Source: Methanobacteriota archaeon
GTDB taxonomy: Archaea > Halobacteriota > Syntropharchaeia > Alkanophagales > Methanospirareceae
Direction of reading: 5' to 3'
DNA: 59,818 nt
Assembly (NCBI GenBank): GCA_034660015.1
Contig: JAYEII010000142.1
Location: 1 to 59,818, forward strand
Each line of letters starts with the position of its first letter. Positions within the stretch are counted from its first letter, which is position 1. Below the pieces are notes generated by a model. That model worked only from the letters and a program-made list of their open reading frames with translations, had not been told where the DNA came from and did not search any database. A program made the position numbers and the translations under genes. Positions 28 through 45,070 of this stretch are shown piece by piece.

Positions 28-139
28 CAGGATTCAGGATACAAGATGCAGGATGCAGGATGCAGGATGCAGGATGCAGGATACAGGATACAGGATACAG
101 GATACAGGATACAGGATACAGGATGCAGGATACAAGATA
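28..139. repeat. 16 tandem copies of heptamer CAGGATR (CAGGATG/CAGGATA/CAAGATG variants); 5' arm of an imperfect inverted repeat enclosing the four-helix-bundle gene
   Basis: Read directly from 28-139. A complementary arm lies at 534-567. The first ~50 codons of track ORF 4..534 are only this array translated. Confidence 0.9.
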
Positions 140-153
140 CAGGGAGGAGGAGG

Positions 154-534
154 ATGATGGCTTTTCAGACGTATAAGGATTTGGAAATATATCAGTTAAG
201 TCATGATTTGGCAATTGAAATGCATAAGGTAAGCCTCAGCTTGCCGAAATTCGAGTTATATGAAGAAGGGAGCCAACTGAGGAGATCTGCTAAGGCAATT
301 CCTGTGAATATCGTTGAGGGATTTGGACGCCGCCGATATAAAAAAGAATTTATCCGATTTCTTACATTTGCTCTGGCATCCTGCGATGAAACAAAGGAGC
401 ATCTTAAAATCTTGTATGAGACAGAGGCAGTCAATGATGACGATATTTTTAATAGCTTTATCAGGAGGTATGAAGATTTAGGACGGAAAATCCACAATTT
501 CATTAAAGCTGTGGAATCTGGTCATAAATCATAA
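154..534 (+). CDS. four-helix-bundle protein of the '23S rRNA intervening sequence protein' family
   Basis: GGAGG-rich RBS at 142-153, then ATG at 154. Family-like segments YQLSHDLAIEMHKV, GSQLRRSAKAIPVNIVEGFGRR and ASCDETKEHL. About 126 aa, the typical size. Confidence 0.75.
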   Translation: MMAFQTYKDLEIYQLSHDLAIEMHKVSLSLPKFELYEEGSQLRRSAKAIPVNIVEGFGRRRYKKEFIRFLTFALASCDETKEHLKILYETEAVNDDDIFNSFIRRYEDLGRKIHNFIKAVESGHKS

Positions 535-567
535 TCCTGTATCATGTATCTTGCATCATGCATCTTG
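534..567. repeat. 3' arm (AATCCTGTATCATGTATCTTGCATCATGCATCTTG) complementary to the CAGGATR array
   Basis: Its reverse complement reads CAAGATGCATGATGCAAGATACATGATACAGGATT, a degenerate CAGGATR/CAAGATR array. It starts at the stop codon of the enclosed gene. Confidence 0.7.
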
Positions 568-584
568 GAACCTGGTGATTAAAA

Positions 585-1139
585 ATGGGCTTCGGAACTA
601 TATTCGCTACCATTGCTATGGTCGTGATAATTGGTATTTCCTCTTACCTGTTCATGACAGGCGCTCTGTTCACCATGGATACGTTATCCAGCTCACTAAA
701 AATAGCGAATGAAATAGATAATGAACAGCTAAAAACAGAAATAGAAATTGGGGATGTGGTTGTAAAAACATCAAACCCTGGCTCAGGAAGTTCCGATATA
801 AATGTTTCTATCAATAACACTGGCTCCACGAAGATATTAAAGTCCGAGTTCGAGCATATAGACGTGTTCGTCTATTATCATAACTACACGTCAGCCGGGG
901 AAAATATCACCATCCACCGGGGGATACCTTACAATGATACTAATTATAGTGCATTGCAGGGTAACGAATGGACCGTGGTGGACATCACGCCGGATCTGAT
1001 AAACCCGCGAATATTTGACCCTGATGAGCAGATGAAAATCGTGATACGGGTTGAACCTGCGATAAACAGCACGATGCAGAACGGGAACTGGACAAAAATA
1101 GTTATGCCAAACGCAGTTTCGGCTTCCAAATATTTCTAA
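585..1139 (+). CDS. archaellum accessory protein, FlaF/FlaG (ArlF/ArlG) family
   Basis: N-terminal TM helix (FATIAMVVIIGISSYLFMTG) followed by a beta-rich soluble domain, about 184 aa. It lies upstream of flaH-flaI-flaJ. The sequence alone does not distinguish F from G. Confidence 0.6.
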   Translation: MGFGTIFATIAMVVIIGISSYLFMTGALFTMDTLSSSLKIANEIDNEQLKTEIEIGDVVVKTSNPGSGSSDINVSINNTGSTKILKSEFEHIDVFVYYHNYTSAGENITIHRGIPYNDTNYSALQGNEWTVVDITPDLINPRIFDPDEQMKIVIRVEPAINSTMQNGNWTKIVMPNAVSASKYF

Positions 1140-1148
1140 ATATTTATA

Positions 1149-1248
1149 GACACAGATTAACACAGATTAACGCAGATGAAAAAATAACATAGCTAAACAT
1201 GGTAGTAGTATAACAATAAATCCGTGTAAATCTGTGTAAATCAGTGTC
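1149..1248 (+). repeat. A-type hairpin element (left arm GACACAGATTAACACAGATTAACGCAGATG, right arm AAATCCGTGTAAATCTGTGTAAATCAGTGTC)
   Basis: Arms built from 10-nt units are reverse-complementary apart from recurrent mismatches. First of three tandem copies. Confidence 0.9.
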
Positions 1249-1275
1249 TTAAAAAAGAACCAATTAAATTTTATA

Positions 1276-1337
1276 GACACAGATTAACACAGATTAACGC
1301 AGATGAATAAATTAATAAATCCGTGTAAATCCGTGTC
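1276..1337 (+). repeat. A-type hairpin element, short-loop copy
   Basis: GACACAGATTAACACAGATTAACGCAGATG ... AAATCCGTGTAAATCCGTGTC. Confidence 0.9.
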
Positions 1338-1364
1338 TTTCAAGAAAACAGAAAATAAATTACA

Positions 1365-1453
1365 GACACAGATTAACGCAGATTAACACAGATGATAAGA
1401 ACCAACACGGTTAAACTAAAATAAATCTGCGTAAATCCGTGTAAATCTGTGTC
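1365..1453 (+). repeat. A-type hairpin element with canonical loop (ATGATAAGAACCAACACGGTTAAACTAAAATAA)
   Basis: Preceded by the conserved flank AAGAAAACAGAAAATAAATTACAG. The right arm ends GTGTC, 20 nt before ATG 1474. Confidence 0.9.
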
Positions 1454-1473
1454 TTAAAAAAGCCGATTTAAAA

Positions 1474-1860
1474 ATGCCGATGAAAAGTTACAAATATAGG
1501 GCGATAACTGAGAAGATAATTGGAGCAGCCCAAAAAGTACACAATACGCTTGGTTATGACTTTTTAGAGAAAGTATATCAAAATGCGCTCGTTATTGAAC
1601 TTCGAACGCTGGGATTTGATGTGGAAGTGGAACAGCCCATAGCAGTTCAGTATAGAGATGAAATCGTTGGTAATTATGTCGCCGATATTGTCGTCGAAGG
1701 AAAAGTCATTCTCGAAATAAAAGCCGTAAAAGAATTGTCAGAAATTCACGAGGTTCAGCTCGTCAATTATCTTAAAGCAACCGGTATTGAAGTGGGTCTT
1801 CTAATTAACTTTGGTAGGTCTGTAACTGTGAAACGCCGTGTGATGGACAAGAAAAAATAA
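1474..1860 (+). CDS. GxxExxY family protein (PD-(D/E)XK nuclease fold)
   Basis: LGYDFLEKVYQNAL near the N-terminus, ADIVVEGKVILEIKA (D..ExK-type core), QLVNYLKATG and GLLINFG. About 128 aa, the typical size. Confidence 0.85.
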   Translation: MPMKSYKYRAITEKIIGAAQKVHNTLGYDFLEKVYQNALVIELRTLGFDVEVEQPIAVQYRDEIVGNYVADIVVEGKVILEIKAVKELSEIHEVQLVNYLKATGIEVGLLINFGRSVTVKRRVMDKKK

Positions 1861-1866
1861 ATTATT

Positions 1867-1945
1867 GACACAGATTAACGCAGATTAACACAGATGATAA
1901 GAATCAACAATGTTAAACTTAAATAAATCCGTGTAAATCCGTGTC
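1867..1945 (+). repeat. A-type hairpin element
   Basis: GACACAGATTAACGCAGATTAACACAGATG...AAATCCGTGTAAATCCGTGTC. It starts 7 nt after the stop of the GxxExxY gene. Confidence 0.9.
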
Positions 1946-1972
1946 TTAAAAAAGAACCAATTAAATTTTATA

Positions 1973-2112
1973 GACGCGGATTAACACAAACCTTTTTGCA
2001 AGCAAAAAGCTTTACCAAAAAAAATCGTACGTGTTTAGATAACATCTCTGTTTTTCTTTTAGCACAGGTTTTCTTTTTTCTAAAAAGAAAAAGTGTTGTG
2101 TAAATCAGTGTC
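1973..2112 (+). repeat. B-type (long) hairpin element: A-type arms with an inserted low-complexity multi-hairpin core
   Basis: The core ACACAAACCTTT...GCTTTACCAAA...CTTTTAGCACAGGTTTTCTTTTTT..AAAAAGAAAAAGTGTTG is shared with 12088-12225, 26256-26397 and 30559-30736. Confidence 0.85.
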
Positions 2113-2232: not shown

Positions 2233-2976
2233 ATGGGAGAAGAAAAGGACGATGAAGAAATAAGCCTCGCTTCTGTTTTTGGCAGTAAAGAGGTACTTAC
2301 CAGCGGGAACAGAGAGATGGACGGGAAGATGGGGGGTGGAATACCCGCCGGCTCGCTTACCCTTATCGAGGGTGGAAACGATACGGGGAAAAGTGTTTTA
2401 ACGCAACAGTTAATGTGGGGGGCACTGCAGCAGGGCTTTAGCCTGGCTACCTATACCACGGAGAACACCATAAAAAGCATGTTGAAACAAATGGACAGTT
2501 TATCCTTAGGCGTATCCGATTATTTCATATTTGGAAACCTCAAAATATATCCCATTCATTTGGAGGGCGTAGAATGGACTGGAACCGTTCCTTTTCTCAA
2601 TTACATCGCCAGTTACGTAAAAGCTAAGTCCATGGAGGTAATACTCATTGATTCTCTTACTGTTTTCGTCTCTGACGCTTCAGATGCAGCGATTCTCAAT
2701 TTCTTCGCATCTTGTAAAAATATATGCGATTCCGGGAAGACAATCCTGATAACTGCTCACACGTTTGCTTTCCCGGAGGAAGTGCTGACCCGCGTGAGGT
2801 CAATATGCGACGCGCACCTCAGCCTGAAGAAAGAAGAGGTGGGGGATAAACTGGTAAGAACGATGGAGGTTGCAAAGGTAAGAGGCGCCCAGAAGACCAC
2901 GGGCAACGTAGTCGCATTTGAAGTCGAGCCAGCATTTGGCTTGCGAATAATTCCCATTTCCAGAGTAAAAGCATAA
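2233..2976 (+). CDS. flaH: archaellum protein FlaH (ArlH), KaiC/RecA-like ATPase
   Basis: Walker A GGNDTGKS and a RecA-like fold, about 247 aa. Its stop lies 1 nt before the flaI start. Confidence 0.85.
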   Translation: MGEEKDDEEISLASVFGSKEVLTSGNREMDGKMGGGIPAGSLTLIEGGNDTGKSVLTQQLMWGALQQGFSLATYTTENTIKSMLKQMDSLSLGVSDYFIFGNLKIYPIHLEGVEWTGTVPFLNYIASYVKAKSMEVILIDSLTVFVSDASDAAILNFFASCKNICDSGKTILITAHTFAFPEEVLTRVRSICDAHLSLKKEEVGDKLVRTMEVAKVRGAQKTTGNVVAFEVEPAFGLRIIPISRVKA

Positions 2977-2977
2977 A

Positions 2978-4789
2978 ATGCCAAGCATAGAACTGCCTTT
3001 TGAGCATAATAAAGTAGATATTAATGAAGACCCGCATGACCTGACGCGGTGTGGGTTATACCAGCTATTGCCATCCGAGGGTAAGAAACACGTTGAGGAA
3101 AGCAAACACGTTCTCCAGTATTTACACATGCTTCCTTCGGAAAACATTGGAACACCAAAATTCTATCCGAAACTTACGCGGAAAATGAAGGCTATAAAGC
3201 GACCAAATTTAGTCTATCCCGTAAATGAAGACATATCCGTGCATATATGCCCTGACAAAGAGGATTCGAGGGACTATTACATTCCTATCGAGCCTGTTGT
3301 TTTCAATAGCTTTGATGGCTTGATTGAAGAGGTAGAGAGAAAAATATCGGTACTGGTGGATACATACGATGAGCCGGAAAACGCCGAGCAGAAAAGGGTT
3401 ATTCTTACGAGCTGCATAGATGAGGTGTGCGAAATAAATACAGAGCCAAACGGGGGGGGTAATGGTAAGTGGAATGGTAATGGTAATGGTAATGGTAATG
3501 GTAATGGTAATGGTAATGGTAAAATCCAGAAGCTTATATCTAAATTCTGGGGTAGCTATGGAAATGGTAAAAAAGTATCTGTAACTCCTTTCGAGCTTAA
3601 GGCAATAAAATACCTTATGATAAGGGATAAAGTGGGGTTAGGCGTTTTGGAGCCTTTTATGCATGACCCGAACATCGAGGATATATCCTGCTCCGGGTTA
3701 GGGAACATATTCATAGAGCATAAGATATTCGAGTCGTTAAAAGCACCGGTAAAGTTTGTAGATAAAAAGGACTTAGACGCATTCGTCATAAAAATGTCGG
3801 AGAAGATAGGAAAACCAATCTCTTACTTCAATCCAATTATGGATGCCGTTCTGCCTGATGGTTCACGTATAAACATCATACTTGGAGAAGACATATCGAA
3901 GAAAGGGTCGAATTTTACCATACGGAAATTCGCCGAAACTCCTCTCAGCGTCCTTCAACTGATAGAATTTGGCACGTTTGATTACGTAATGGCGGCGTAT
4001 TTCTGGATGTGTCTTAGTTCGGGGCTGAATTGTTTCATTGCAGGAGAGACCGCATCAGGAAAAACAACCACAATGAACGCTATTACTACTTTCATCCCTC
4101 CCAGGGCGAAGATAGTGTCCATCGAGGAAACCCCCGAACTCCAGGTTCCACATCACAACTGGATACGAGAAATTACAAGACCCGTGCAGGGTAAGGGAGA
4201 AGGAGAAGGGTCGAGAGTAGAAATGTTCGACCTGCTGAAGGCTTCCTTGAGACAGCGTCCAAACGAGATAATTGTGGGTGAGATACGGGGTCAGGAAGGG
4301 CTGATAGTATTCCAGGGAATGCAGACCGGGCATCCCGCCATGTCCACTTTCCACGCCGCGAACGTCGAGAAGCTCATTCAAAGGCTTACCGGAGACCCCA
4401 TAAATGTCCCTAAGACTTATGTGGACAACTTGCATTTCGTCGTCATGCAAAATGCCGTAAAAGGTCCTGACGGCAGAATGATGAGAAGAATAACGAACGT
4501 AAGTGAAATAGTAGGATATGACCCTTATACCGAAAGTTTCAATTTTATCGAAGTTTTCAGGTGGAATGCGGAAAATGACCTCTTTGAATTCACCGGAAAC
4601 ATGAATTCGTATCTGCTGGAGCGAATAATAGCACCGAAAAAAGGTATTCCCGCGGGTAACGTGCGAAAGATATATAAGGAGCTGGAGAAGCGCGCGAGGA
4701 TGCTGAAGAAAATAAACGATTCCGGAGTTACGGGCTTCTACGAGCTCTTCGCCGTACTATCCAAGATGGACGCCGAGGGGGTGCTGTAA
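2978..4789 (+). CDS. flaI: archaellum assembly/motor ATPase FlaI (ArlI), type II/IV secretion ATPase superfamily
   Basis: Walker A GETASGKTT, plus SIEETPEL, IVGEIRG and FQGMQTGH motifs. About 603 aa. Translationally coupled to flaH and flaJ. Confidence 0.92.
   Translation: MPSIELPFEHNKVDINEDPHDLTRCGLYQLLPSEGKKHVEESKHVLQYLHMLPSENIGTPKFYPKLTRKMKAIKRPNLVYPVNEDISVHICPDKEDSRDYYIPIEPVVFNSFDGLIEEVERKISVLVDTYDEPENAEQKRVILTSCIDEVCEINTEPNGGGNGKWNGNGNGNGNGNGNGNGKIQKLISKFWGSYGNGKKVSVTPFELKAIKYLMIRDKVGLGVLEPFMHDPNIEDISCSGLGNIFIEHKIFESLKAPVKFVDKKDLDAFVIKMSEKIGKPISYFNPIMDAVLPDGSRINIILGEDISKKGSNFTIRKFAETPLSVLQLIEFGTFDYVMAAYFWMCLSSGLNCFIAGETASGKTTTMNAITTFIPPRAKIVSIEETPELQVPHHNWIREITRPVQGKGEGEGSRVEMFDLLKASLRQRPNEIIVGEIRGQEGLIVFQGMQTGHPAMSTFHAANVEKLIQRLTGDPINVPKTYVDNLHFVVMQNAVKGPDGRMMRRITNVSEIVGYDPYTESFNFIEVFRWNAENDLFEFTGNMNSYLLERIIAPKKGIPAGNVRKIYKELEKRARMLKKINDSGVTGFYELFAVLSKMDAEGVL
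3458..3522 (+). repeat. hexanucleotide microsatellite (AATGGT)n inside flaI, encoding a (Asn-Gly)n tract
   Basis: By my count there are 8 perfect AATGGT units at 3473-3520, preceded by degenerate GGTAATGGTAAGTGG. The repeat is in frame. Confidence 0.9.
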
Positions 4790-4790
4790 A

Positions 4791-6341
4791 ATGCAAAATG
4801 CGAAGAAGCGCAAATTGAAAAAGAAGAATTCAATACATATTGATATTGGGGCTCAAATAAAAGAGGACCAGGCAATGATGCTTGACCTTCTTAACATACT
4901 CACCTATATGTCATCCATTGCAACTTCGAATGTAAGCAGGGATAAGATCTTCGAGTTAGCTGCCCAACAAGAGGGAATTACGGCGAAATCAATGAAAAAA
5001 ATACACCTGTTAGCGAATAATTACGGATATGATTATTCGCACGCAAGCAAGTTGGCTGCGGATGAGGCGCATCATCCTGATCTTAAAGACTTCCTTACCC
5101 GGCTCTCGAACGCATTAGGGCTGGGGGAGGAGGAAGAGAAATTCTTTCGCGACGAAACGGAAAGAATGGTAGAAGTGTACACAAATAAATACCAGAGCGA
5201 TGTAGAAACACTGAAGAAGTGGACGGATGGATATGCTGCGCTGCTCGTATCGGTAATACTGGTCATTGCCGTAGTCCTTATAAGCACCATGCTGTTCAAT
5301 ATGGGCGATACAGTTACTACGTCTATTATAGCGGGCGCTTTATTTTGCTTCATTGCTTTTTTCGGCGTTTATGTGCTCTACCGGTCAGCTCCTTACGAGC
5401 TAACGGCGCATTCACTGGAGATAAAATCGAAGGAGCAGGAATTAGCGAGAAAGATGAGCATGATTCTTCTACCCACGACCGGTATTACCGCACTTATTTT
5501 AGTGGTGATAGGCGTGGAACCCTGGATAATATTTCTTGTGGTCGCAGCTTTGCTTGCACCGGTAGGTGTGGTTGGAATAATGGACGAGAAGAAGATAGAA
5601 AGAAGGGACTACGACATATCAACGTTTTTAAAGAGCCTTGGTTCTACTGCTGGAACCGTGGGGGCTACGCTTGCTGTGGCACTGGAGCATCTGGATAAGA
5701 AATCCGTTGCTTCGTTAGAGGAACCTGTAGGTAGGCTGCAGAGACGATTAGTTAACGGAATAAATCCGAAGGTATGCTGGCGTTATTTCTCAGGAGAAAC
5801 GGGGTCCGAATTAATAAACAAATATACAAACGTGTTCTTAGATGCGACAGACCTTGGAGGCAATCCGACAAAGATAGGCGAAATAGTTGCTCACTCTTCA
5901 TTGGGAATAGCCATATTAAGAGCGAAAAGAAAGCTTGTATCCACCGGGTTCATGAATCTTGTAATACCTCTGCATGCGGCGATGGCAGGTATTCTCATGT
6001 TCATATACCGGATAATGTTTTCGTTCAATAATTCAGTAGCAGCGATGATGGAGGAGAAATCAGCAGAGGTCGGGGGAGCGGGGGGGAGTATGCCGACAGG
6101 CATGGGCTTCTTTAATATCGGCGGGACCACTGACCTCGCTTTCATCGCAAATTACGTGACTGTCATTATCCTCATAATAACGATTGCCAATGTGTTTGCG
6201 ACGAAGTTCGCAGTCGGTGGTAGCAACTACACGCTGTGCTTCTATGCTTCTATTTTATTCTTCGTCTCCGCAATCGTTCTGTTCACCATCCCAATAATGG
6301 CAGATAGCATTTTCGGAATACAAATGGGTGCTGGTGGATAA
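4791..6341 (+). CDS. flaJ: archaellum membrane platform protein FlaJ (ArlJ)
   Basis: Polytopic membrane protein of about 516 aa with two TadC/GspF-like halves. Its start is 1 nt after the flaI stop. Confidence 0.85.
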   Translation: MQNAKKRKLKKKNSIHIDIGAQIKEDQAMMLDLLNILTYMSSIATSNVSRDKIFELAAQQEGITAKSMKKIHLLANNYGYDYSHASKLAADEAHHPDLKDFLTRLSNALGLGEEEEKFFRDETERMVEVYTNKYQSDVETLKKWTDGYAALLVSVILVIAVVLISTMLFNMGDTVTTSIIAGALFCFIAFFGVYVLYRSAPYELTAHSLEIKSKEQELARKMSMILLPTTGITALILVVIGVEPWIIFLVVAALLAPVGVVGIMDEKKIERRDYDISTFLKSLGSTAGTVGATLAVALEHLDKKSVASLEEPVGRLQRRLVNGINPKVCWRYFSGETGSELINKYTNVFLDATDLGGNPTKIGEIVAHSSLGIAILRAKRKLVSTGFMNLVIPLHAAMAGILMFIYRIMFSFNNSVAAMMEEKSAEVGGAGGSMPTGMGFFNIGGTTDLAFIANYVTVIILIITIANVFATKFAVGGSNYTLCFYASILFFVSAIVLFTIPIMADSIFGIQMGAGG

Positions 6342-6350
6342 TAAAGTATT

Positions 6351-6439
6351 GACACAGATTAACACAGATGATAAAAATCAACAATGTTAACGTAAATTTA
6401 ACGTAAATAAATCTGCGTAAATCCGTGTTAATCCGTGTC
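6351..6439 (+). repeat. A-type hairpin element plus conserved tail
   Basis: GACACAGATTAACACAGATG...AAATCTGCGTAAATCCGTGTTAATCCGTGTC followed by TTAAATAGGAGGCAGTCGGATATACTTTATGCACAAT. Confidence 0.9.
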
Positions 6440-6500
6440 TTAAATAGGAGGCAGTCGGATATACTTTATGCACAATAAGAAAGAAAAGGAGGAACGTAAA

Positions 6501-7210: not shown

Positions 7211-7427
7211 GACACGGATTAACGCAGATTAACACAGATGATAAGAATCAACACGGTAAAACTAAATCACAGTAACAAGAAAGAATAATTTTTGATAATC
7301 GGACGCAGATGAACGCAGATAATCAGGATTTTAAACTTAATTTTGGCACTAAACCGGAAGTTAAACGTAAGGCATTTGATAATTTGAGGAAATAGTTTTC
7401 TGCGTAAATCCGTGTAAATCTGCGTCC
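7211..7427 (+). repeat. composite element: A-type left arm followed by a complete C-type hairpin (7301-7427)
   Basis: GACACGGATTAACGCAGATTAACACAGATG..., then GGACGCAGATGAACGCAGATAATCAGGATTTTAAA...TTCTGCGTAAATCCGTGTAAATCTGCGTCC. The same C-type unit occurs at 18115-18215 and 57989-58081. Confidence 0.85.
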
Positions 7428-8042: not shown

Positions 8043-8081
8043 TTAAATAGAAGGCAGTTATCCTTTATGTACAATAAAAAA

Positions 8082-11384: not shown

Positions 11385-11582
11385 ATGGATTGCCCATATT
11401 TGGACGCCTGTCCTATATTTGCCAAATTCAGTAGTGAAGGAATGGCAAATATATGGATTAGTGGCTACTGCAAGAAAAACGAGGGAGGAGATTGTGAGAG
11501 GAAGAAACTAAAGGACGGAGGGAAAGAAGTGCCCATAACACTGCTGCCAAACGGTACACAGTTGGAAAGTCTGGCAAAATAA
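11385..11582 (+). CDS. small Cys-rich hypothetical protein (putative metal-binding)
   Basis: MDCPYLDACPIF...YCKKNEGGDCERK carries 4 Cys. The RBS AAGGAGGTG lies 12 nt upstream of ATG 11385. Confidence 0.45.
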   Translation: MDCPYLDACPIFAKFSSEGMANIWISGYCKKNEGGDCERKKLKDGGKEVPITLLPNGTQLESLAK

Positions 11583-11686
11583 GTGACACCAGCCGGTACA
11601 ATCGCTTAGCAGCAAGTATCTTCCTGTACACGCTAAGGATGGGCAAAGGGCTTACCTTTGCCTTTTATCTTTTTAATTTTAATAAC

Positions 11687-12073
11687 ATGCTAAGAATAAG
11701 CTATAAGCCAAGATATACGTCTGGGAATCCGAGAAAATTCGGTGGAACCTATATCCTGCATGATAAACGAGGAGGAGACGGGAAGCAGGTAGGGCATATT
11801 GATGCCGAATTTGTGCATGAAGATAAAAGGTACTATAATGGATTGGTACCCAGGAGGACCGCCAGGATTATCTATATTGCCATCAAAGATGATTTTCAAG
11901 GTATGGGATACGGGAGAGAGCTGGTTGAATACGTGGAAAGCGAAGGTAAACGTTACGGAATGAGAAGGTCCTATGCAAACAACGCTATGCAGCAATCAGT
12001 GGGGTTTTGGAAGAGAATGGGATATGAAGAACTGATAAGAGAAAGGGGGATATGGATAAAAAAGCTGTGCTAA
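11687..12073 (+). CDS. GNAT family N-acetyltransferase
   Basis: Acetyl-CoA motif A QGMGYGRELVEYVE and a C-terminal FWKRMGY. The start is uncertain (11639 or 11687). Confidence 0.7.
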   Translation: MLRISYKPRYTSGNPRKFGGTYILHDKRGGDGKQVGHIDAEFVHEDKRYYNGLVPRRTARIIYIAIKDDFQGMGYGRELVEYVESEGKRYGMRRSYANNAMQQSVGFWKRMGYEELIRERGIWIKKLC

Positions 12074-12087
12074 AAAAATAAATTTTT

Positions 12088-12225
12088 GACACAGATTAAC
12101 GCAGATTAACACAAACCTTTCTTTCAAAAAGAAAGCTTTACCAAAGAAATTTGTTTTTCTTTTAGCACAGGTTTTCTTTTTTTGAAAAAGAAAAAGTGTT
12201 GCGTAAATCAGTGTAAATCCGTGTC
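12088..12225 (+). repeat. B-type (long) hairpin element plus tail
   Basis: GACACAGATTAACGCAGATTAACACAAACCTTTCTTTCAAAAAGAAAG...AAAAAGTGTTGCGTAAATCAGTGTAAATCCGTGTC. Confidence 0.9.
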
Positions 12226-12281
12226 TCAAATAGAAGGGGGTTATACTTTATATACAATGAAAAAGCAAAGGGGTGAACAAA

Positions 12282-13872: not shown

Positions 13873-13931
13873 TTAAATAGAAAGAGGATATACTTTATAT
13901 ACAAGGATAAAAAGAAATATAAAGTTATAAG

Positions 13932-18040: not shown

Positions 18041-18215
18041 GACACAGATTAACGCAGATTAACACAGATGAAAAAAATCAACAATGTTAAAGAACAAGAA
18101 AATTTTTGATGATCGGACGCAGATGACCGCAGATAATCAGGATTTTAAATATAAGGCATTTGATTGATAATTTGAGGAAATAGTTTTCTGCGTAAATCCG
18201 CGTAAATCTGCGTCC
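18041..18215 (+). repeat. composite element: A-type left arm plus complete C-type hairpin (18115-18215) plus tail
   Basis: GACACAGATTAACGCAGATTAACACAGATG..., then GGACGCAGATGACCGCAGATAATCAGGATTTTAAA...TTCTGCGTAAATCCGCGTAAATCTGCGTCC. Confidence 0.85.
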
Positions 18216-22324: not shown

Positions 22325-22699
22325 GACACAGATTAACGCAGATTAACACAGATAAACACAGATAGTGAAATTGCTATATCCCCAAAATTCACCGCAGAGC
22401 ACACGGAGACCGCAAAGGCAAAACAAAAAAATAAATTGTTGACACAGATTAACGCAGATTAACACAGATGATAAAAATCAACAATATCAAACTTAAATAA
22501 GTCCGCGTAAATCAGTGTAAATCTGTGTCTTAAATAGAAGGAAGTTATACTTTATATACAACCAGAAAGCCTAAACAATGATTGGAACCGTCTTAAAACT
22601 CTGCGTACTCTGCGCTCTCCGCGGTGATAAATCACTTGATTTTTAGACTGTGCCCGTTCAACGTAAGTAAATCTGCGTAAATCAGTGTTAATCCGTGTC
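22325..22699 (+). repeat. nested mosaic of repeat modules (outer A-type arms enclosing a complete inner A-type element at 22441-22529 plus T- and S-type modules)
   Basis: Left arm at 22325-22360, T module at 22364-22425, complete element with tail at 22441-22563, reversed S module at 22588-22655, right arm at 22667-22699. Confidence 0.8.
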
Positions 22700-22747: not shown

Positions 22748-24109
22748 ATGATAGAGATAATCAGAACAATCCTTGGTGAATGGAAAGGCAGAGAATTACC
22801 CGAAGTTATTGAACGAAGTGTAGATTTGCTGGATTATAGCCATATAGAACCATGTAAAATAATCGTAATCACCGGATTCAGGAGAACAGGAAAGACCTAT
22901 CTTGCTTATCATCTTATCAAAAGATTATTAGAAGCAGAAGGAAAGAGCCGGGAACAGGTGGTTTATGTTAACTTTGAAGACGAGCGGATACCATTAGAAA
23001 CAACATTTCTAACCACTCTGCTCCCTACGATAAAGAAGACACACACCGAGCAGTTGGAGTTCCTGTTCCTGGACGAAATCCAGAACATCCCGAATTGGAG
23101 CAGATGGCTACGGAGAGTTTATGATACAGAGAAAATACGATTTTTCGTCACCGGGTCATCCTCTAAGATGTCAAGCAGAGAAATCCCTACCGAGCTGCGA
23201 GGACGGTTTCTGGAGGTAAAAATATTCCCTTTAAGCTTCAGAGAGTTCCTCCAATTTAAAGATATAAATATCAATGAAGAAACAGTAGCGTACTCCGAAG
23301 ATGAAAAGGCAAAACTGATGGGTGCCCTGAGGGAGTACTTGGAATTTGGGGGCATGCCAGAGGTGGTCCTGGCAAGCGAAGGGGAAAAATCAGAGCTAAT
23401 TCATAGTTATTACAATACCGTTGTCCGGCGGGACATCATTGAGCGATTCAAGATAAGGAATGAGGAAAGTTTGAAAGCGTTACTAAGGCTGTTACTTAAT
23501 TCAACGAGCTATACCATCAGTAAGTTATACAACAACCTGAAGAGTTTGAATTATGAAGTAGGAAAAGGCACTATACAGAGCTATTTGAGCTATATCGAGG
23601 ATTCATATTTTATATACAGCCTTCCCCTGTTCTCATTTAAAATCAAGAATCAGTTGCAATACGCCCGGAAGGTATATTTTATTGACACCTCATTTCTAAA
23701 TCTATTGTCTGCACGATTCACAAAAAACAGCGGCAGGCTGTATGAAAATCTCGTTTTTATTGAATTAAAAAGAAGACAGGCAAACGACCCAAACCTGGAG
23801 ATATACTATTGGAGGTCTGCGCAGAAAGAGGAGGTTGATTTTGTGCTTAAGCACGGATTAAAAGTCGAGCAGCTAATTCAGGTCTGCTACGATATTAACG
23901 ATTATGACACGAAGAGGAGGGAGACAAAAGCGTTACTTAAAGCGAGCAAAGAGCTTAAATGCAATAACCTGTTTGTCATTACCGAGGATTATGACGCCTT
24001 TGAGGAGATAAAGAGAAAGCGAATAGTGTACATTCCATTGTGGAGATGGATTTTGCAAAACAAGATAAATTATAGACACAGATTAACACAGACAGATGAT
24101 AAGAATTAA
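22748..24109 (+). CDS. AAA+ ATPase with a DUF4143-type C-terminal domain
   Basis: Walker A GFRRTGKT, Walker B FLFLDEIQ, SSSKMSS and a C-terminal EVDFVL...QVCY region. The C-terminal 15 codons run through the repeat left arm. Confidence 0.85.
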   Translation: MIEIIRTILGEWKGRELPEVIERSVDLLDYSHIEPCKIIVITGFRRTGKTYLAYHLIKRLLEAEGKSREQVVYVNFEDERIPLETTFLTTLLPTIKKTHTEQLEFLFLDEIQNIPNWSRWLRRVYDTEKIRFFVTGSSSKMSSREIPTELRGRFLEVKIFPLSFREFLQFKDININEETVAYSEDEKAKLMGALREYLEFGGMPEVVLASEGEKSELIHSYYNTVVRRDIIERFKIRNEESLKALLRLLLNSTSYTISKLYNNLKSLNYEVGKGTIQSYLSYIEDSYFIYSLPLFSFKIKNQLQYARKVYFIDTSFLNLLSARFTKNSGRLYENLVFIELKRRQANDPNLEIYYWRSAQKEEVDFVLKHGLKVEQLIQVCYDINDYDTKRRETKALLKASKELKCNNLFVITEDYDAFEEIKRKRIVYIPLWRWILQNKINYRHRLTQTDDKN

Positions 24110-24137: not shown

Positions 24138-24168
24138 TAAAATAGAAGGAAGCTATGCTTTATATACA
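24137..24168 (+). promoter_or_regulatory. conserved element tail (CTAAAATAGAAGGAAGCTATGCTTTATATACA); candidate promoter for a leaderless 24169 gene
   Basis: The centre of the TATA-like AAAATAG lies about 27 nt upstream of ATG 24169. There is no room for a Shine-Dalgarno sequence. Confidence 0.4.
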
Positions 24169-26256
24169 ATGACAAAAGTAAGAATTTTAATCGTGGAAGA
24201 CGAAGCCATCGTAGCCGAAGACCTGGCGATGGCGATTACCGATATTGGTTACGAAGTGGTGGGGCGTGCTGGCAGCGCAGAGGAAGCCGTAAAAAAGGCT
24301 GTTGAACTCAAGCCGGATTTGATATTGATGGATATTGTTCTTAGAGGGCGAGAAAACGGCATAGGCACTTCTCATGAGATAAAAGAGAAGATGGATATTC
24401 CCATTATATTTCTTACCGCATTTTCGGATAGAGAGTTATTAGATAGAGCCAAAAGCGTCGAGCCGTATGCTTACATTGTTAAACCGTTCCAGGAGCGGCA
24501 GCTTTTCGCATCCATAGAAATGGCTCTTCACAAAAACAGGATGGAGAAGAAATTAAAAGAGAGTGAGAAATTTAGTTCCAGCCTGCTGAGCAATTCGCCC
24601 AATCCCATAATAGTTGTCAATCCAGATACTTCAGTAAGATATGTGAATCCTGCTATGGAAAAGCTAACCGACTTTTCTGCTGCCGAGCTCGTTGGCAAAA
24701 AAGCGCCATATCCCTGGTGGACGGAAGAAACGCTGCCGCAGACCAGTAAGGACCTGAAAGAAGCTATGCAGAAGGGGGTGACGCAACTTGAGGAGCTTTT
24801 TCAGAAGAAGAACGGGGAGCGTTTCTGGGCTGAGATAACTTCTACACCCGTGAAAAGCAATGGCGAGTTCAAGTATTACCTGTCAAACTGGGTTGACATC
24901 ACCGAGCGCAAGCGTGCGGAGGCGAAGATAAGGAAATTAAGTTCCGCGGTTGAGCAGGCGATTGACGGTATAGCGATGTATGACTTAGAACAAAAACTGA
25001 GCTATGTGAACGATGCTTTTGCACTGATGCACGGTTATTCACCGGAAGAGATGATAGGAATGAAAGTAGAGAATCTACATGATGAGGAACGGATGAATGA
25101 ATACAGGAGTGGTATGAACCAGATAATGACACAGGGTTCATGGGCAGGAGAAACATGGCATCTCAAAAAAGACGGCACACTTTTTCCCGCATTCATGAGC
25201 GTTAGTTTATTGAAAGGCGATGATGGAAACCACCCGGGGATCCTGGCAGTTGCAAGAGACATCACCAAGCAGAAGCGAGCGGAGGTGAGACTGCAGGAAA
25301 GAGAAGCACAATATCGCGGCATCTTTAATTCTGCTACCGATTCATTACTTATCTTCGATTATTACGGTAATATTGAAGAGGTAAATCCTCAAGCATGTGA
25401 AATGTATGGTTATCTTTATGAGGAGTTGATAACACTATCGGGCAAGGATATCGTTCATCCCGATTATTATCATATTTTTGAACAATTCAAACGAGACGTT
25501 CAGACCACCGGTGAATTTCACGCGGAATCGGTAGACGTCCGTAAGGATGGCACTCCATTTAATATCGAACTCGGAGGAGCGGGATTTAATTATAAGGGGG
25601 AACCACATTTGTTGGCTATCGTAAGAGACATCACCGAGCGGAAGAAGGCGGAGGAAGAAGTAAAGAGATCCCATGAGTTCCTTGCGACTATCATTGATAA
25701 CATTCCTGATATAGTCACCATTAAGGACCTGCAGTACCGCCTCGTATTGGTCAATCAGGCATATTGTAACATAACAGGGCATACGAAGGAGGAAGTAATT
25801 GGGAAAAAAGCCTACTGGGAAAAAGATAAGGAAATATTTCAAACAGGGAAAGGGTTGGACCTCCCTGAACAGTCTTATACTGACCTTGAAAGTATGTGCC
25901 ATTATATATCTGTTAAAAAAGCGCCATTAACAGACGAATCAGGAAAACCAACTCATGTTCTGACAATAAGTCGTGACTTCACCAAGCGTAAGCATGCGGA
26001 GGAGAAGGCGAAAGAGGCTTATAGACTAAGAGAACACTTTCTAAAAGAAACGTCACATAGAATTATCACCCCGGTGACTATCATCGGAGGAAACGCAGAA
26101 TTACTGCTTGATTCCCGCAATCTCGGCGAAGCCCAAAAAGCGAGAATCAGGACTATACGAGAGAAGAACGATGAAGTCCAGAAACTGGTGATGGACGCGC
26201 TGGCGGGAAGGTATTTAAAGGAAGAGGAAGGTGAGGAACAAGAAGATAAATTATAG
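24169..26256 (+). CDS. REC-PAS(x4)-DHp protein: receiver plus PAS sensor with a HisKA-like phosphoacceptor region but no ATPase domain
   Basis: REC (ILIVEDE...LMDIVL...KPF), four PAS modules with DITERK linkers, and H-box LKETSHRIITPVTIIGGNAELL. The ORF stops at the TAG of the next repeat element. Confidence 0.8.
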   Translation: MTKVRILIVEDEAIVAEDLAMAITDIGYEVVGRAGSAEEAVKKAVELKPDLILMDIVLRGRENGIGTSHEIKEKMDIPIIFLTAFSDRELLDRAKSVEPYAYIVKPFQERQLFASIEMALHKNRMEKKLKESEKFSSSLLSNSPNPIIVVNPDTSVRYVNPAMEKLTDFSAAELVGKKAPYPWWTEETLPQTSKDLKEAMQKGVTQLEELFQKKNGERFWAEITSTPVKSNGEFKYYLSNWVDITERKRAEAKIRKLSSAVEQAIDGIAMYDLEQKLSYVNDAFALMHGYSPEEMIGMKVENLHDEERMNEYRSGMNQIMTQGSWAGETWHLKKDGTLFPAFMSVSLLKGDDGNHPGILAVARDITKQKRAEVRLQEREAQYRGIFNSATDSLLIFDYYGNIEEVNPQACEMYGYLYEELITLSGKDIVHPDYYHIFEQFKRDVQTTGEFHAESVDVRKDGTPFNIELGGAGFNYKGEPHLLAIVRDITERKKAEEEVKRSHEFLATIIDNIPDIVTIKDLQYRLVLVNQAYCNITGHTKEEVIGKKAYWEKDKEIFQTGKGLDLPEQSYTDLESMCHYISVKKAPLTDESGKPTHVLTISRDFTKRKHAEEKAKEAYRLREHFLKETSHRIITPVTIIGGNAELLLDSRNLGEAQKARIRTIREKNDEVQKLVMDALAGRYLKEEEGEEQEDKL

Positions 26257-26397
26257 ACACGGATTAACGCAGATTAACACAAACCTTTCTTTCAAAAAGA
26301 AAGTTAACTTTACCAAAGAAATTTGTTTTTCTTTTAGCACAGGTTTTCTTTTTTTGAAAAAGAAAAAGTGTTGTGTAAATCAGTGTAAATCAGTGTC
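26256..26397 (+). repeat. B-type (long) hairpin element
   Basis: GACACGGATTAACGCAGATTAACACAAACCTTTCTTTCAAAAAGAAAG...AAAAAGTGTTGTGTAAATCAGTGTAAATCAGTGTC. Confidence 0.9.
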
Positions 26398-26434
26398 TTA
26401 AATAGAAGGAAGCTATACTGTATATACAATAAAA
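26397..26434 (+). promoter_or_regulatory. conserved element tail (CTTAAATAGAAGGAAGCTATACTGTATATACAATAAAA); candidate promoter
   Basis: ATG 26435 lies 38 nt after the first C, which predicts a leader of about 6 nt. Confidence 0.35.
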
Positions 26435-30558: not shown

Positions 30559-30736
30559 GACACTGATTAACGCAGATTAACACAAACCTTTCTTTAAACC
30601 TTTTAAGAAAAGGTTTATCAAAAACGCTTCGCGAAAAGAAAGTTAACTTTACCAAAGAAATTTGTTTTTCTTTTAGCACAGGTTTTCTTTTTTTGAAAAA
30701 GAAAAAGTGTTGCGTAAATCAGTGTAAATCTGTGTC
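30559..30736 (+). repeat. B-type (long) hairpin element with an extra inserted hairpin
   Basis: GACACTGATTAACGCAGATTAACACAAACCTTTCTTTAAACCTTTTAAGAAAAGGTTT...AAAAAGTGTTGCGTAAATCAGTGTAAATCTGTGTC. Confidence 0.85.
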
Positions 30737-44090: not shown

Positions 44091-44215
44091 AAGAGCCGTA
44101 TTTGTTTACCGCCGAGATCACGGAGAGCGCGGAGATGACGAAAAAGACTCTCTGTGTTCTCTGCGGGCTCAGCGGTAAACTATTTTCTATTTTAGGAGGA
44201 GGTGAGAGAAAAAAA

Positions 44216-44515
44216 ATGAGTGGTAAAAGCTTGGTAAACATGCAAATAGTGGTAGAAAAAGTAGAAAACATGGATGAGTTTCTTGTCAGAGGAGGATATT
44301 ATGGAAGCGGAATCGACATGGAACACTTAGTTCTGGATGTTCTCCTATCAATAGACGAGTTATTTCATCGATCAGTGGGCCTTGAGGTAAAAGAACTAAC
44401 AGAAAAGAAAACAAAGGGGAAAATCGTGGTAAACATGCAGATAGCGGCAGAAGAAATAGAAACTTTAGGTGGGCTTCCAGAGGAGGATTTTATCCCGGTG
44501 TGGAGCTGCGTATAA
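44216..44515 (+). CDS. uncharacterised small protein, copy 1 of a tandem pair inside the che operon
   Basis: A strong RBS (TAGGAGGAGGTGAG) precedes ATG 44216. MSGKSLVNMQIVVEKVENMDEFLVRGGYYGSGIDMEHLVLDVLLSIDELFH...GKIVVNMQIAAEEIETLGG shows an internal N/C repeat. Confidence 0.5.
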   Translation: MSGKSLVNMQIVVEKVENMDEFLVRGGYYGSGIDMEHLVLDVLLSIDELFHRSVGLEVKELTEKKTKGKIVVNMQIAAEEIETLGGLPEEDFIPVWSCV

Positions 44516-44519
44516 AAGA

Positions 44520-44606
44520 GGCAATAGGGATTGGGCAATAGGCAATAGGCAATAGGGCAGGGCAATAGCTGCCTATTGGCTATTCGCTATTTGGCTATTG
44601 GCTATT
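44520..44606. repeat. G-type hairpin ((GGCAATA)n against (CTATTGG/CTATTCG)n)
   Basis: GGCAATAGGGATTGGGCAATAGGCAATAGGCAATAGGGCAGGGCAATAGCTGCCTATTGGCTATTCGCTATTTGGCTATTGGCTATT, followed by TTAGAAGGAGGTGA (RBS). Confidence 0.85.
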
Positions 44607-44626
44607 TTAGAAGGAGGTGATAAAAA

Positions 44627-45047: not shown

Positions 45048-45070
45048 TTTAGAAGGAGGTGAGAATAAAA

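Follow-up and report, generated by a model that had tools for sequence, protein, structure and literature searches.

The link between small GxxExxY nuclease genes and a family of hairpin repeats is real and general, and its recurrence across bacterial and archaeal phyla suggests selfish mobile DNA of a kind not described before. The whole is best read as a selfish element with autonomous and non-autonomous forms, the sole protein of which is the GxxExxY nuclease. The block analysed here lies in a 59,818-nucleotide stretch of archaeal DNA (the window), where an intact PF13366 gene (1474-1860) is bracketed by five hairpins in the gap between flaG and flaH. The chances are judged to be about even that this block is a copy of a compact selfish element, rearranged and with extra hairpins added, and that the proposed enzyme is the element's own nuclease.

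The locus and its hairpins

The features of the locus, and further elements of the window, are as follows.

30..570, + strand: sister cassette with a PF05635 four-helix-bundle gene (154-534)
585..1139, + strand: FlaF/G-like archaellum gene, upstream host gene (archaellin fold, weak match)
1149..1248, + strand: A-type hairpin 1; left arm of 3 decamer units, loop of 38 nt, right arm of 3 units
1276..1337, + strand: A-type hairpin 2; minimal loop, RNA fold z -4.8
1338..1364, + strand: conserved element leader TTTCAAGAAAACAGAAAATAAATTACA; AT-rich, TATA-like, directly 5' of the left arm
1365..1453, + strand: A-type hairpin 3; RNA fold z -8.1
1474..1860, + strand: GxxExxY / PDDEXK_3 nuclease gene; 128 aa, alternative start ATG at 1480 (MKSYKY)
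1867..1945, + strand: A-type hairpin 4
1973..2112, + strand: B-type hairpin 5; terminal arms the same as in A-type
2233..2976, + strand: flaH, downstream host gene
2978-4789: FlaI
4791-6341: FlaJ
6346..6477, + strand: gene-less A-type element after flaJ
12078..12257, + strand: gene-less B-type element with tail TCAAATAGAAGG..TTATATACAA; AAAAA on either side

An earlier note on this DNA had placed three hairpin copies upstream of the gene and two downstream, one of them B-type, in a block between flaF/G and flaH. Coordinates and folding agree with this description, the archaellum neighbours are those listed above, and every feature was located where it had been placed or a few bases off. The hairpins form a MITE-like family whose inverted arms are built of tandem decamers (GACACAGATTAAC...). 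The window contains about 22 complete copies, and in it the 17-mer CACAGATTAACRCAGAT (at most 2 mismatches) occurs 67 times against an expectation of 0.01. All five hairpins at the gene fold as RNA, with z-scores of -3.1 to -8.1 relative to dinucleotide shuffles; for hairpin 1 the energy is -28.9 kcal/mol (z -6.0). The hairpins matched no family in an Rfam scan at the gathering cut-offs, and no rRNA was found in the window.

Several parts of the block recur elsewhere. It was found by alignment that the leader TTTCAAGAAAACAGAAAATAAATTACA is common to the copies at the hem, rpL10 and radical-SAM loci of related archaea, and it also stands 5' of most copies in the window. The left arm of hairpin 3 and its GATGATAA junction are identical to the gene-abutting left arm of the canonical cassette. 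At hairpin 4, the right-arm unit that overlaps the stop codon in paralogs and in the orthologues L011 and L012 is deleted in the window, where the order of the copy is rearranged to hairpin, gene, hairpin. The loop of the B-type hairpin (~100 nt, with nested hairpins) is common to the copies at 12088, 26256 and 30559.

The claim that the local hairpin density is highest around the gene was borne out: the gaps flanking it, with 3 and 2 complete hairpins, are the sole two of the 55 gaps in the window with more than one. The in-window excess is modest (1.5 expected in the 706 nt of intergenic DNA, P ~0.02, by a window-only density test that is partly circular), and the strong evidence comes from other loci.

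Two readings of the stems as RNA signals were rejected. Judged by their mismatches, the stems pair better as minus strand (30 G.T vs 11), which does not suit a simple sense-RNA role; wobble pairs in sense RNA had been considered as support for the stems, but the mismatch pattern speaks for the antisense strand. An intrinsic terminator was discarded because the order of its flanking runs is reversed, with the T-run 5' and the A-run 3' of the stem.

The GxxExxY protein

The open reading frame at 1474-1860 matches PF13366 (PDDEXK_3) with an E-value of 1.4e-40 and 138.7 bits (cut-off 22), and TIGR04256 (GxxExxY) with an E-value of 6.9e-40 and 136 bits (cut-off 35). The protein of the window has every family-invariant residue (G29, E32, Y35, D71, E81, K83, Q95, N98 and Y99), and among 52 homologues G29, E32, Y35, D71, E81 and K83 are invariant or nearly so, while Q95 and Y99 do not vary. 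A QxxxY motif (Q95, Y99) follows ExK, as in the RecB/Cas4/lambda-exonuclease branch. An AF2 model built on a 52-sequence alignment, which included a 41-48% identical subfamily, reached a pLDDT of 85; the first model (32 sequences, at least 69% identity, pLDDT 52) was discarded. The closest solved folds found with Foldseek were Cas4 SSO0001 (4ic1, E 7e-4) and LHK/lambda exonucleases, with TM-scores of only ~0.5, and Cas4 profiles match the protein weakly (E 1e-3 to 4e-4). The protein is thus modelled as a minimal PD-(D/E)XK nuclease of the Cas4/RecB/lambda-exonuclease type that carries all catalytic residues.

Cas4 proper was rejected as an identity: TIGR00372 gave 18.5 against a cut-off of 65, the 128 residues hold no cysteine cluster, and no cas genes lie nearby. 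The PADLOC defence models gave no match beyond a weak Cas4 one (E 3.6e-4). Sequence and profile searches of the PDB returned no related structure, the hits being spurious (the CroV588 repeat protein and L-Lys oxidase). Look-ups with the exact sequences of the window's GxxExxY and FlaH gave no match, and an ANME-type source is assigned to the window from the names attached to near-identical homologues. When the window gene was compared with genes of ANME-2 and Desulfobacteraceae, dN/dS was 0.1-0.2 with saturated dS, which suggests that the protein is under purifying selection.

Association of gene and arms across phyla

The association was examined with 76 GxxExxY genes picked by protein similarity alone, the other open reading frames of the same loci serving as controls. 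The genes came from ANME-2, Methanosarcinales, Desulfobacterales, Planctomycetota, Bacteroidota, Cloacimonadota, Chloroflexota, Armatimonadota and other groups. Flanking inverted repeats (Smith-Waterman score at least 24) were found at 63% of the 76 loci and at 4.6% of 673 control frames (Mann-Whitney p 1e-21). Arms occur at 4.9 per kb within 200 nt of GxxExxY genes against 0.20 per kb elsewhere, and only 2 in total were found in shuffled sequence. The earlier note had proposed checking whether other GxxExxY paralogs are flanked by the hairpins, and would have counted a lack of association as refutation; arms of this kind do flank them in related archaea and at about 60 of the 76 loci from distant phyla, so the idea withstood this check, and at about a quarter of the genes no recognisable arm was found within 160 nt.

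The arms share their sequence as well as their position. A core of GAC-AC-N-GATT-W-A, or GACAGGATTAA, is common across loci, and the arm-type patterns, both tandem and inverted, are GAC-[AG]C-N-GATT-W-A and GACAGGATT-W-A; the consensus across phyla is tTTA-GACACGGATT-W-ACACNGATT. This core is kept although synonymous sites are saturated. The arm type (10-mer or 9-mer) tracks protein similarity, and the observed difference was reached in none of 2000 permutations. In about 20 loci the right arm overlaps the stop codon or starts 0-5 nt from it.

Chance co-location would mean that a repeat common in intergenic DNA and an inserted gene that has nothing to do with it both accumulated in a permissive gap. 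Hairpins do already occupy 16 of the 55 gaps in the window, and the in-window P-value is marginal; the statistics across loci and phyla, together with a ~690-bp unit common to separate loci (see below), effectively refute this explanation, the probability of which is now negligible.

Phage carriage was looked for in 50,697 phage records, where no match was found, and none of 17 IMG/VR viral contigs had a GxxExxY gene within about 5 kb of arm-like repeats. In the searchable literature on GxxExxY, PF13366, TIGR04256, PF05635 and the arm sequences, no description of the gene-hairpin association was found.

Structure, copying and mobility of the element

In its canonical form the unit has a short AT-rich leader, then a left arm in which 2-3 units of ~10 nt (GACACAGATTAAC...) stand in tandem, and a 125-aa GxxExxY gene that starts where the left arm ends and has its stop codon inside the first inverted unit of the right arm. 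The right arm is usually followed by a second complete hairpin and then by a TATA-box-like tail of ~35 nt (TTAAATAGAAGG..TTATATACAA). Canonical copies with left arm, gene and right arm were found in L001 (7028-7450 and 16898-17340), L093 and L097. Between the hem, rpL10 and radical-SAM loci, a ~690-bp unit made up of arm, gene, arm, hairpin and tail shows ~99% identity, and the flanks outside it are unrelated; the GxxExxY proteins encoded at two of these loci, both from one sample, are identical. In related archaea, paralogs are found at four or more loci, and their proteins are more than 90% identical. Gene and arms are inherited and copied together, as one unit.

The gene-less hairpins far outnumber the gene-bearing ones and have leader, arms and tail in common with them. 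A sample of 122 A-type left arms from metagenomes comprised 84 on gene-less hairpins and 4 in front of a GxxExxY gene; no other coding cargo was found behind any of them. Direct alignment showed internally deleted GxxExxY remnants within the hairpins L199 and L150, so that at least some gene-less hairpins are internal-deletion derivatives of the gene-bearing form. In most gene-less loops no remnant of the gene was detected: a blastn-short screen gave 3 hits against 3 in shuffles, and the deletion origin thus rests on these two clear intermediates and on the shared junctions.

Close strains differ in the presence of hairpins, which points to recent activity. The flanks in the window are 94-97% identical to those of L011 and L012. 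The element at 12078..12257 is missing at the orthologous site of L011 (20107), and the site that corresponds to 6346..6477 holds just 14-19 nt in L011 and L012, possibly a scar. Given the common parts, the strain polymorphism and the deletion derivatives, gene-less hairpins behave as non-autonomous copies of the MITE or REPIN kind. Presence and absence alleles are also seen at one cassette site: a divergent cassette lies between the Fe-ADH and UPF0179 genes in L001, the empty site in L004 reads TAAgATG, and divergence is raised beside one junction of the cassette. The insertion flanks are AT-rich and ambiguous (TAA/TAA at one site, AAAAA/AAAAA at another, TAA-N-ATG at two, also T-run/A-run), and no clean target-site duplication was found at the sites compared.

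The elements begin 2-10 nt past stop codons, co-oriented with the genes, and their conserved TATA-like tail stands just upstream of the following start codons. Such placement would suit hairpins that the host has domesticated for delivering promoters, insulating transcripts or stabilising 3' ends, with GxxExxY maintaining or processing them. In about 15 genomes of Planctomycetota, moreover, the gene occupies one syntenic site and so looks like a stable resident. A domesticated system is nonetheless very improbable in view of the signatures of selfish DNA, namely several near-identical paralogs, polymorphism for presence or absence, decay of copies and patchy occurrence across domains.

Relation to known mobile systems

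The earlier note had likened the arrangement to REP/RAYT systems and had proposed that the nuclease-fold protein is functionally tied to the hairpins. Gene and hairpins do belong together, as flanked paralogs and joint movement show; the likeness to RAYT is no more than an analogy. As in REPtrons and REPINs, abundant imperfect palindromes lie between genes, often in tandem arrays, a small associated gene has inverted repeat copies on its flanks, and the repeats far outnumber the gene and behave as non-autonomous mobile DNA. The protein, however, belongs to PF13366, a PD-(D/E)XK family of Cas4/lambda-exonuclease type, and not to the HUH Y1 transposases (PF01797); its gene is multi-copy with near-identical paralogs rather than single-copy, and in the canonical form it lies inside the hairpin and not beside it. 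The arms also differ, being made of tandem 9-10-nt units that lack a GTAG tag and end in GAC...GTC, and the pairing extends over Archaea and many bacterial phyla.

With MITEs and their parent insertion sequences, the element shares terminal inverted repeats that occur on copies with and without a gene, internal-deletion intermediates, strain-polymorphic copies and an outward-facing promoter-like end. It differs from them in that it has no DDE or other recognised transposase (the parent element's sole reading frame is the PD-(D/E)XK nuclease) and has arms composed of tandem iterons; in its ambiguous flanks no clear target-site duplication is seen. The IS200/IS605 elements are similarly minimal, with a single enzyme of ~130 aa, hairpin ends, strand asymmetry of the hairpin and no obvious target-site duplication; their enzyme is an HUH tyrosine transposase, whereas GxxExxY differs in fold and chemistry, as a predicted metal-dependent hydrolase, and its arms are true inverted repeats. 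Homing endonuclease genes of the free-standing PD-(D/E)XK type resemble the element in having a small nuclease gene with intact catalytic residues, presence or absence at otherwise identical sites and raised divergence by one junction, but they have neither conserved inverted iteron flanks nor gene-less repeat families.

REP-like families usually rely on a single distant enzyme. By the same token, a transposase elsewhere, RAYT-like Y1 or of another class, might move the hairpins while GxxExxY hitch-hikes in the loop; the genomes were examined only as fragments, and a Y1_Tnp gene is present on a related contig. That gene, the only PF01797 member seen, was considered as a true RAYT and rejected: it belongs to an IS200-like element, the ends of which carry unrelated hairpins of their own and which inserted into an A-type hairpin and truncated it. 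CGTC-tagged REPs, which are likewise widespread palindromes, have been reported without a dedicated or adjacent transposase (Di Nocera et al. 2013, PMC3733652), and this again agrees with a distant enzyme. Against it, GxxExxY genes have no other recurrent neighbour family across 80 loci, and since arm and gene stay paired in Archaea and Bacteria alike, hitch-hiking would require one and the same unseen enzyme to be present throughout. This explanation is consequently regarded as quite improbable. Kinship of the GxxExxY arms with the CGTC-tagged REPs is a lead only: the arms end in G(T/C)GTC, with CGTC in a minority, and differ from those REPs in unit structure and length.

Four-helix-bundle cassettes and intervening sequences

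The sister cassette at 30..570 has its PF05635 gene between ~15 CAGGATR heptamers (30-135) and an inverted partner (535-570). The Pfam name of this four-helix-bundle family implies a link to intervening sequences (IVSs) of 23S rRNA. The IVSs with a PF05635 frame in Coxiella and Leptospira are comparable to the GxxExxY element, having terminal inverted repeats that pair into a long stem, with a frame of ~120 aa in the loop, and a sporadic, horizontally spread distribution; a PF05635 cassette even occurs 1 kb upstream, in the same operon as the GxxExxY block. In contrast to them, the GxxExxY element lies between protein-coding genes (flaG/flaH), carries a different family of reading frame and has arms of conserved sequence.

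The comparison raises another explanation, according to which the long stem, as RNA or DNA, shelters a small selfish frame in host transcripts, much as in 23S rRNA IVSs that RNase III cuts. GxxExxY would then be one cargo among several with an activity (repair, defence or anti-defence) unrelated to the arms, and movement would come from host recombination between the dispersed repeats. Four-helix-bundle genes in the window and at related loci have a like architecture with mutually unrelated arms (CAGGATR, GCAATAGG, AGAAGAT, CGAAAT), and a small unassigned frame at 44.2-45.0 kb is likewise set apart by tandem-repeat hairpins. All five hairpins fold stably, and known IVS elements carry their frame looped out from a terminal stem of 28 bp (PMC4990558). 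A purely structural stem, however, would not retain its primary sequence across phyla between which synonymous sites have reached saturation. Conserved mismatches break the arms every 4-5 bp and the antisense strand pairs better, and the sole coding cargo behind the A-type arm is GxxExxY. In archaeal copies, moreover, a TATA-like box precedes the left arm and the ATG follows it, so that the arm may not be transcribed together with the gene. A sheltered passenger of this kind is thus considered rather unlikely. To our knowledge, RNase III is absent from most archaea.

Proposed mechanism and significance

Under the preferred reading of a selfish element with autonomous and gene-less forms, the GxxExxY protein would be the element's own enzyme, and the nuclease itself may recognise or cut the arms. 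Its target would be the iterated arm units, recognised by their sequence, with a nick or cut made at the hairpin or cruciform; the break or resected end would then be repaired by host recombination. PD-(D/E)XK nucleases hydrolyse DNA and have no joining activity, so that mobility would need additional host functions. Another copy could serve as the repair template, in a homing-like copy-paste; alternatively, the element might be placed into AT-rich spacers such as TAA-N-ATG junctions. Gene-less copies would be mobilised in trans through their arms. Insertion into a tight operon could be tolerated because the tail would give the downstream host gene a promoter-like TATA box again and the long stem would isolate the insert.

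It is proposed, tentatively, that GxxExxY proteins are candidate mobilising nucleases of a super-family of iteron-armed hairpins in Bacteria and Archaea, forming a new transposable or homing class that might also explain PF05635 cassettes, IVSs with reading frames and possibly the CGTC REPs. If this were true, a minimal enzyme of Cas4/lambda-exonuclease type would take the place of a DDE, HUH or serine/tyrosine recombinase. As far as we know, the GxxExxY (PF13366/TIGR04256) and 23S-IVS four-helix-bundle families are large and widespread, have high paralog counts and lack an assigned function; the conserved DNA partner is the first concrete candidate substrate for GxxExxY, and a candidate enzyme is offered for hairpin-repeat families that have no RAYT. 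That the frame of an IVS might serve mobility is a long-standing, untested idea (PMC4990558), and comparative evidence now revives this 30-year-old notion of mobile IVS-type elements with a frame in a hairpin. For annotation, such elements account for tight operons of these archaea (archaellum, haem, ribosomal protein) that are interrupted without apparent loss of function, and the promoter-like tail suggests that the element rewires operon transcription. A sequence-directed nuclease of 125 aa with an iterated 10-bp recognition unit could also have value as a tool.

The archaellum locus and its hairpin-bracketed gene

The 5' end of the window (59.8 kb, 42% GC) carries an archaellum operon, in which the following features were located:

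585-1139, FlaF/G-like gene (profile match)
1149-1248, upstream hairpin
1276-1337, upstream hairpin
1365-1453, upstream hairpin
1474-1860, GxxExxY gene
1867-1945, downstream hairpin
1973-2112, downstream hairpin
2233-2976, FlaH (profile match)
2978-4789, FlaI (profile match)
4791-6341, FlaJ (profile match)

The gap between the FlaF/G-like gene and flaH measures 1093 nt and contains a single ORF, which matches PF13366 (PDDEXK_3, E 1.4e-40) and TIGR04256 (GxxExxY, E 6.9e-40). In each of the five hairpins the left arm is built from tandem decamers (GACACAGATTAACRCAGATTAAC...), two or three in number, and the right arm is inverted (...TAAATCYGTGTAAATCTGTGTC), with fold z values of -3.1 to -8.1 relative to shuffles. 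Coordinates and profile matches agree with the earlier note, which had described a GxxExxY gene bracketed by five hairpins inside the archaellum operon. Its statement that hairpin density is highest at this gene also holds, as the gaps on either side are the only ones in the window with more than one complete hairpin; the excess reaches only P ~0.02 in a test confined to the window, and the local count is not the main argument for a tie between gene and repeats. In the FlaI N-terminal region, a (GGTAAT)n repeat (3462-3530) gives an NGNGNG… run, and the protein has 603 aa in the window, 563 aa in L011 and 593 aa in L012, two loci of related archaea.

The hairpin repeat family

A 17-mer of the repeat family has 67 matches in the window against 0.01 expected, and the family comprises ~29 loci and ~22 complete hairpins. 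Nearly all copies are intergenic and co-oriented with the genes; they typically start 2-10 nt past the upstream stop codon, with a 5' leader, AATAAATTATW, directly before the stem. After the right arm, a 3' tail (TTAAATAGAAGGnAGTTATACTTTATATACAA) occurs in six near-exact copies, with none expected:

8043-8074, tail
12226-12257, tail
13873-13904, tail
22530-22561, tail
24138-24169, tail
26398-26429, tail

The tail includes a TTTATATA box, and the distance from its end to the next start codon is often between a few and ~25 nt. It resembles an archaeal BRE/TATA promoter brought by the element, which would in this way give the promoter back. That the hairpins are a domesticated regulatory module is considered improbable.

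Loops were classed as minimal, ~30 nt ('A') and ~100 nt ('B'), and others exist. The B-type copies have in common, inside the standard arms, a ~100-nt loop (…AACCTTTCTTTCAAAAAGAAAG…TTTTAGCACAGGTTTTCTTTTTTTGAAAAAGAAAAAGTG…) with two nested hairpins:

1973-2112, B-type copy
12088-12225, B-type copy
26256-26397, B-type copy
30559-30736, B-type copy

A further variant (7302-7426 and 18116-18214) combines GGACGCAGATGAAC arms with a loop of ~70 nt that is conserved (…AATCAGGATTTTAAA…GGCATTTGATAATTTGAGGAAATAG…). The stem shows conserved mismatches every 4-5 bp, ATTAA in the left arm standing against TAAAT in the right. Because the plus strand has 32 A.A, 30 A.C and 11 G.T non-Watson-Crick pairs in 18 copies, the minus strand is the better paired. 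No Rfam family matches these hairpins. Three paralogous AAA_14 + DUF4143 ATPase genes within 10 kb (22748-24109, 27711-28991 and 30798-32120) are each edged by hairpin elements.

Gene and arms in close archaeal relatives

Numerous homologues with 88-96% identical proteins were found on contigs that, judged by their source names, belong to Methanophagales/ANME-type archaea. The fla locus has its orthologues in L011 and L012, which are laid out as in the window; there the GxxExxY stop codon lies within a right-arm unit (TAAATCTGTGTAAATCCGTGTC) that has been lost from the window copy. A haem-biosynthesis operon (L001-L010) contains one paralog, whose protein is 93% identical; a second follows rpL10 (L093, L096) and a third stands ahead of a radical-SAM gene (L097, L098). 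The proteins of L096 and L098, two loci of the same sample, are identical. At the haem, rpL10 and radical-SAM loci a unit of ~690 bp is ~99% identical and the flanks are unrelated. It begins with the leader and a left arm of 27 nt, goes on with ATGATAATG...gene...TAA, whose stop codon falls in a right-arm unit, and closes with TTTTATA, a full hairpin and the tail. In archaeal copies the 27-nt left arm may act as the spacer from a TATA-like box to a leaderless ATG. L001 also holds a divergent GxxExxY (protein subfamily 41-48% identical) between Fe-ADH and UPF0179, whose arms adjoin the gene directly and use a different decamer (ACCACGAGATTACACCAGATTACACAG ... AAATCTGTGGAATCTTGTGGT); L004 is the empty site for this cassette, with the two neighbours one base apart (TAAgATG). 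The GxxExxY gene and its arms form one unit, inherited and copied together.

Gene and arms across distant phyla

A protein-only scan with one genome per species gave 80 loci (52-75% protein identity) from, among others, ANME-2, Methanosarcinales, Ca. Argoarchaeum, Desulfobacterales, Planctomycetota, Bacteroidota, Cloacimonadota, Chloroflexota, Armatimonadota and Verrucomicrobiota. The 120 nt upstream of each gene were compared with the reverse complement of the 120 nt downstream, and flanking inverted repeats (score >=24) were found at 63% of 76 GxxExxY genes and at 4.6% of 673 other ORFs of the same loci (Mann-Whitney p 1e-21). Chance co-location of gene and repeats is effectively excluded. 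Together with the paralogs in related archaea, this bears out the tie between gene and hairpins that the earlier note had proposed; the finding is real and broader than that note could tell.

The distant arms are tandem 9-10-nt units with a single common core (consensus tTTA-GACACGGATT-W-ACACNGATT; 9-mer form GACAGGATTAACAGGAT). Their density is 4.9 per kb up to 200 nt away from the genes and 0.20 per kb elsewhere, with two arms in total in shuffled sequence, and in ~20 loci the right arm either overlaps the stop codon or starts at a distance of 0-5 nt from it. Arm type follows protein similarity, none of 2000 permutations being as extreme as the observed difference. Between the window gene and those of ANME-2 and Desulfobacteraceae dS is saturated and the decamer in the arms is unchanged; the arm sequence is therefore under constraint. 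No recurrent neighbour family was found beside the distant genes except a housekeeping synteny block in ~15 Planctomycetota genomes, where GxxExxY looks like a long-term resident.

The GxxExxY protein

The invariant residues are G29-x-x-E32-x-x-Y35, D71, E81-x-K83 and Q95-x-x-N98-Y99, the last of which is the QxxxY motif typical of RecB/Cas4-type nucleases. Sequence searches gave no PDB relatives. An AlphaFold model (pLDDT 85, pTM 0.81) has an alpha-alpha-beta-beta-beta-alpha-beta-beta core; the structures closest to it are those of Cas4 SSO0001 and of the LHK and lambda exonucleases, with tRNA-splicing endonucleases next in rank (TM ~0.5). With dN/dS of 0.1-0.2 among copies, the gene encodes an intact predicted nuclease under purifying selection. 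Against defence-system models only a weak Cas4 match was obtained; the protein had no match among 50,697 phage records, and on plasmids it is rare.

Gene-less copies and recent change

A metagenome scan with the exact A-type left arm as query returned 122 arms, of which 84 belong to gene-less hairpins (median loop 29 nt), 4 have GxxExxY next, 9 are cut by contig ends and 25 are solo or degenerate; no other gene stands behind any of the 122. Gene-less copies have all non-coding parts in common with gene copies, outnumber them ~25:1 and are polymorphic. They would be moved in trans; an unseen transposase as the mover of the hairpins is improbable. Both junctions of the gene persist in their loops, that of the start as CAGATGATAA / ATGAAAAG and that of the end as AAATAAATC. 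Two loci are clear intermediates: L199 keeps ATGAAAATCACAAA, followed by a ~300-nt deletion and the final ~60 nt of the gene, and L150 keeps a segment coding EKVYQNSLVIEL. A systematic screen for gene remnants in gene-less loops did no better than shuffles, and an origin by deletion therefore rests on these two examples and not on statistics.

L011 and L012 were also used for strain comparison, their flanks being 94-97% identical to the window. The element at 12078-12257, with AAAAA on either side, is present in the window only, and in place of that at 6346-6477 both strains have a possible scar of 19 nt. In L011 a 97-nt half-element (11486-11581) fills precisely the space from the flaH TAA to the flaI ATG; the window reads TAAaATG at this point (2974-2980). 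The half-element comprises GGAAGGAGG, an SD-mini-ORF (MKNKKKNK*), a right arm and a tail. Hairpin number around the GxxExxY gene varies among the three strains. A 238-nt segment of the window (11453-11691), not related to hairpins, is missing from L011 (at 19722), and two small ORFs are altered. In L222, an IMG/VR contig in whose locus no GxxExxY was found, arm-type hairpins (GACACGGATTTACACTGATTTACACTG…) at 1032-1127 and 2514-2611 are situated directly upstream of a pair of large paralogous ORFs on the opposite strand and overlap the predicted N-termini of both.

Proposed mechanism and comparison with known systems

The GxxExxY nuclease would recognise the iterated arm units, and copying would begin with a nuclease-made break that is mended by host recombination. 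The element works in like manner to the REP/RAYT and MITE/IS pairs. The earlier note's comparison with REP/RAYT is no more than an analogy: the RAYT enzyme is an HUH Y1 protein and that of the present element is not, because of which the defining RAYT test came out negative. The sole Y1 gene nearby was rejected as a RAYT: it is a frameshifted Y1_Tnp within an IS200/IS605-like element (L001, 14300-14850) with CCCTGTGGCTTGCCACAGGG end hairpins, whose insertion into an A-type hairpin removed the left half of the latter; in L004 (8340-8470) this hairpin is intact. CGTC-tagged REPs occur without a transposase (PMC3733652), and the present element may be related to them. In the literature on GxxExxY family names and arm sequences no earlier account of the gene-arm association was found. 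The element was rated as a hairpin-repeat element of the autonomous/non-autonomous kind whose enzyme is unprecedented; that it constitutes a new class of mobile element is conceivable, though doubtful.

Cassettes of like design

Two four-helix-bundle genes are found in the window:

154-534, PF05635 / TIGR02436, between flaF and flaG (cassette 30-570)
52591-52995, minus strand, second gene (region 52445-53020)

Upstream of the first are ~15 tandem CAGGATR heptamers, and their inverted partner (ATCCTGTATCATGTATCTTGCATC...) begins at the stop codon; the layout at L011 8797-9198 matches. The CAGGAT core agrees with the 9-mer form of the arms found at many bacterial GxxExxY genes. The second has tandem AAATTTCAAAG / GAATTCATAAATTTC-type repeats on its flanks and a full hairpin downstream. 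Inverted tandem-repeat arms likewise occur at the four-helix-bundle genes of L011 (520-888), L028, L053 and L063, the unit sequence differing in each. An ORF-in-stem design is common to 23S rRNA intervening sequences and the present element, and the origin and mobility of the former are still unexplained (PMC4990558). The hairpins could be read as a stem of that kind holding unrelated cargo, a reading favoured by the like arm design and varied sequences of the four-helix-bundle cassettes and regarded as unlikely.

Two near-identical small ORFs lie in a chemotaxis gene cluster:

44102-44515, small ORF
44627-44962, small ORF

Neither has a Pfam or NCBIfam match, and hairpins of GGCAATAGG-type tandem units, which also flank the gene at L011 520-888, separate them (region 44100-45060). 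They may add a third cargo family to those of this design. Elsewhere in the window, a truncated IS1634-family transposase ORF (55354-56052, minus strand) and a group II intron domain D1-D4 fragment (58671-58781, minus strand; RF02012, 40 bits) were observed.
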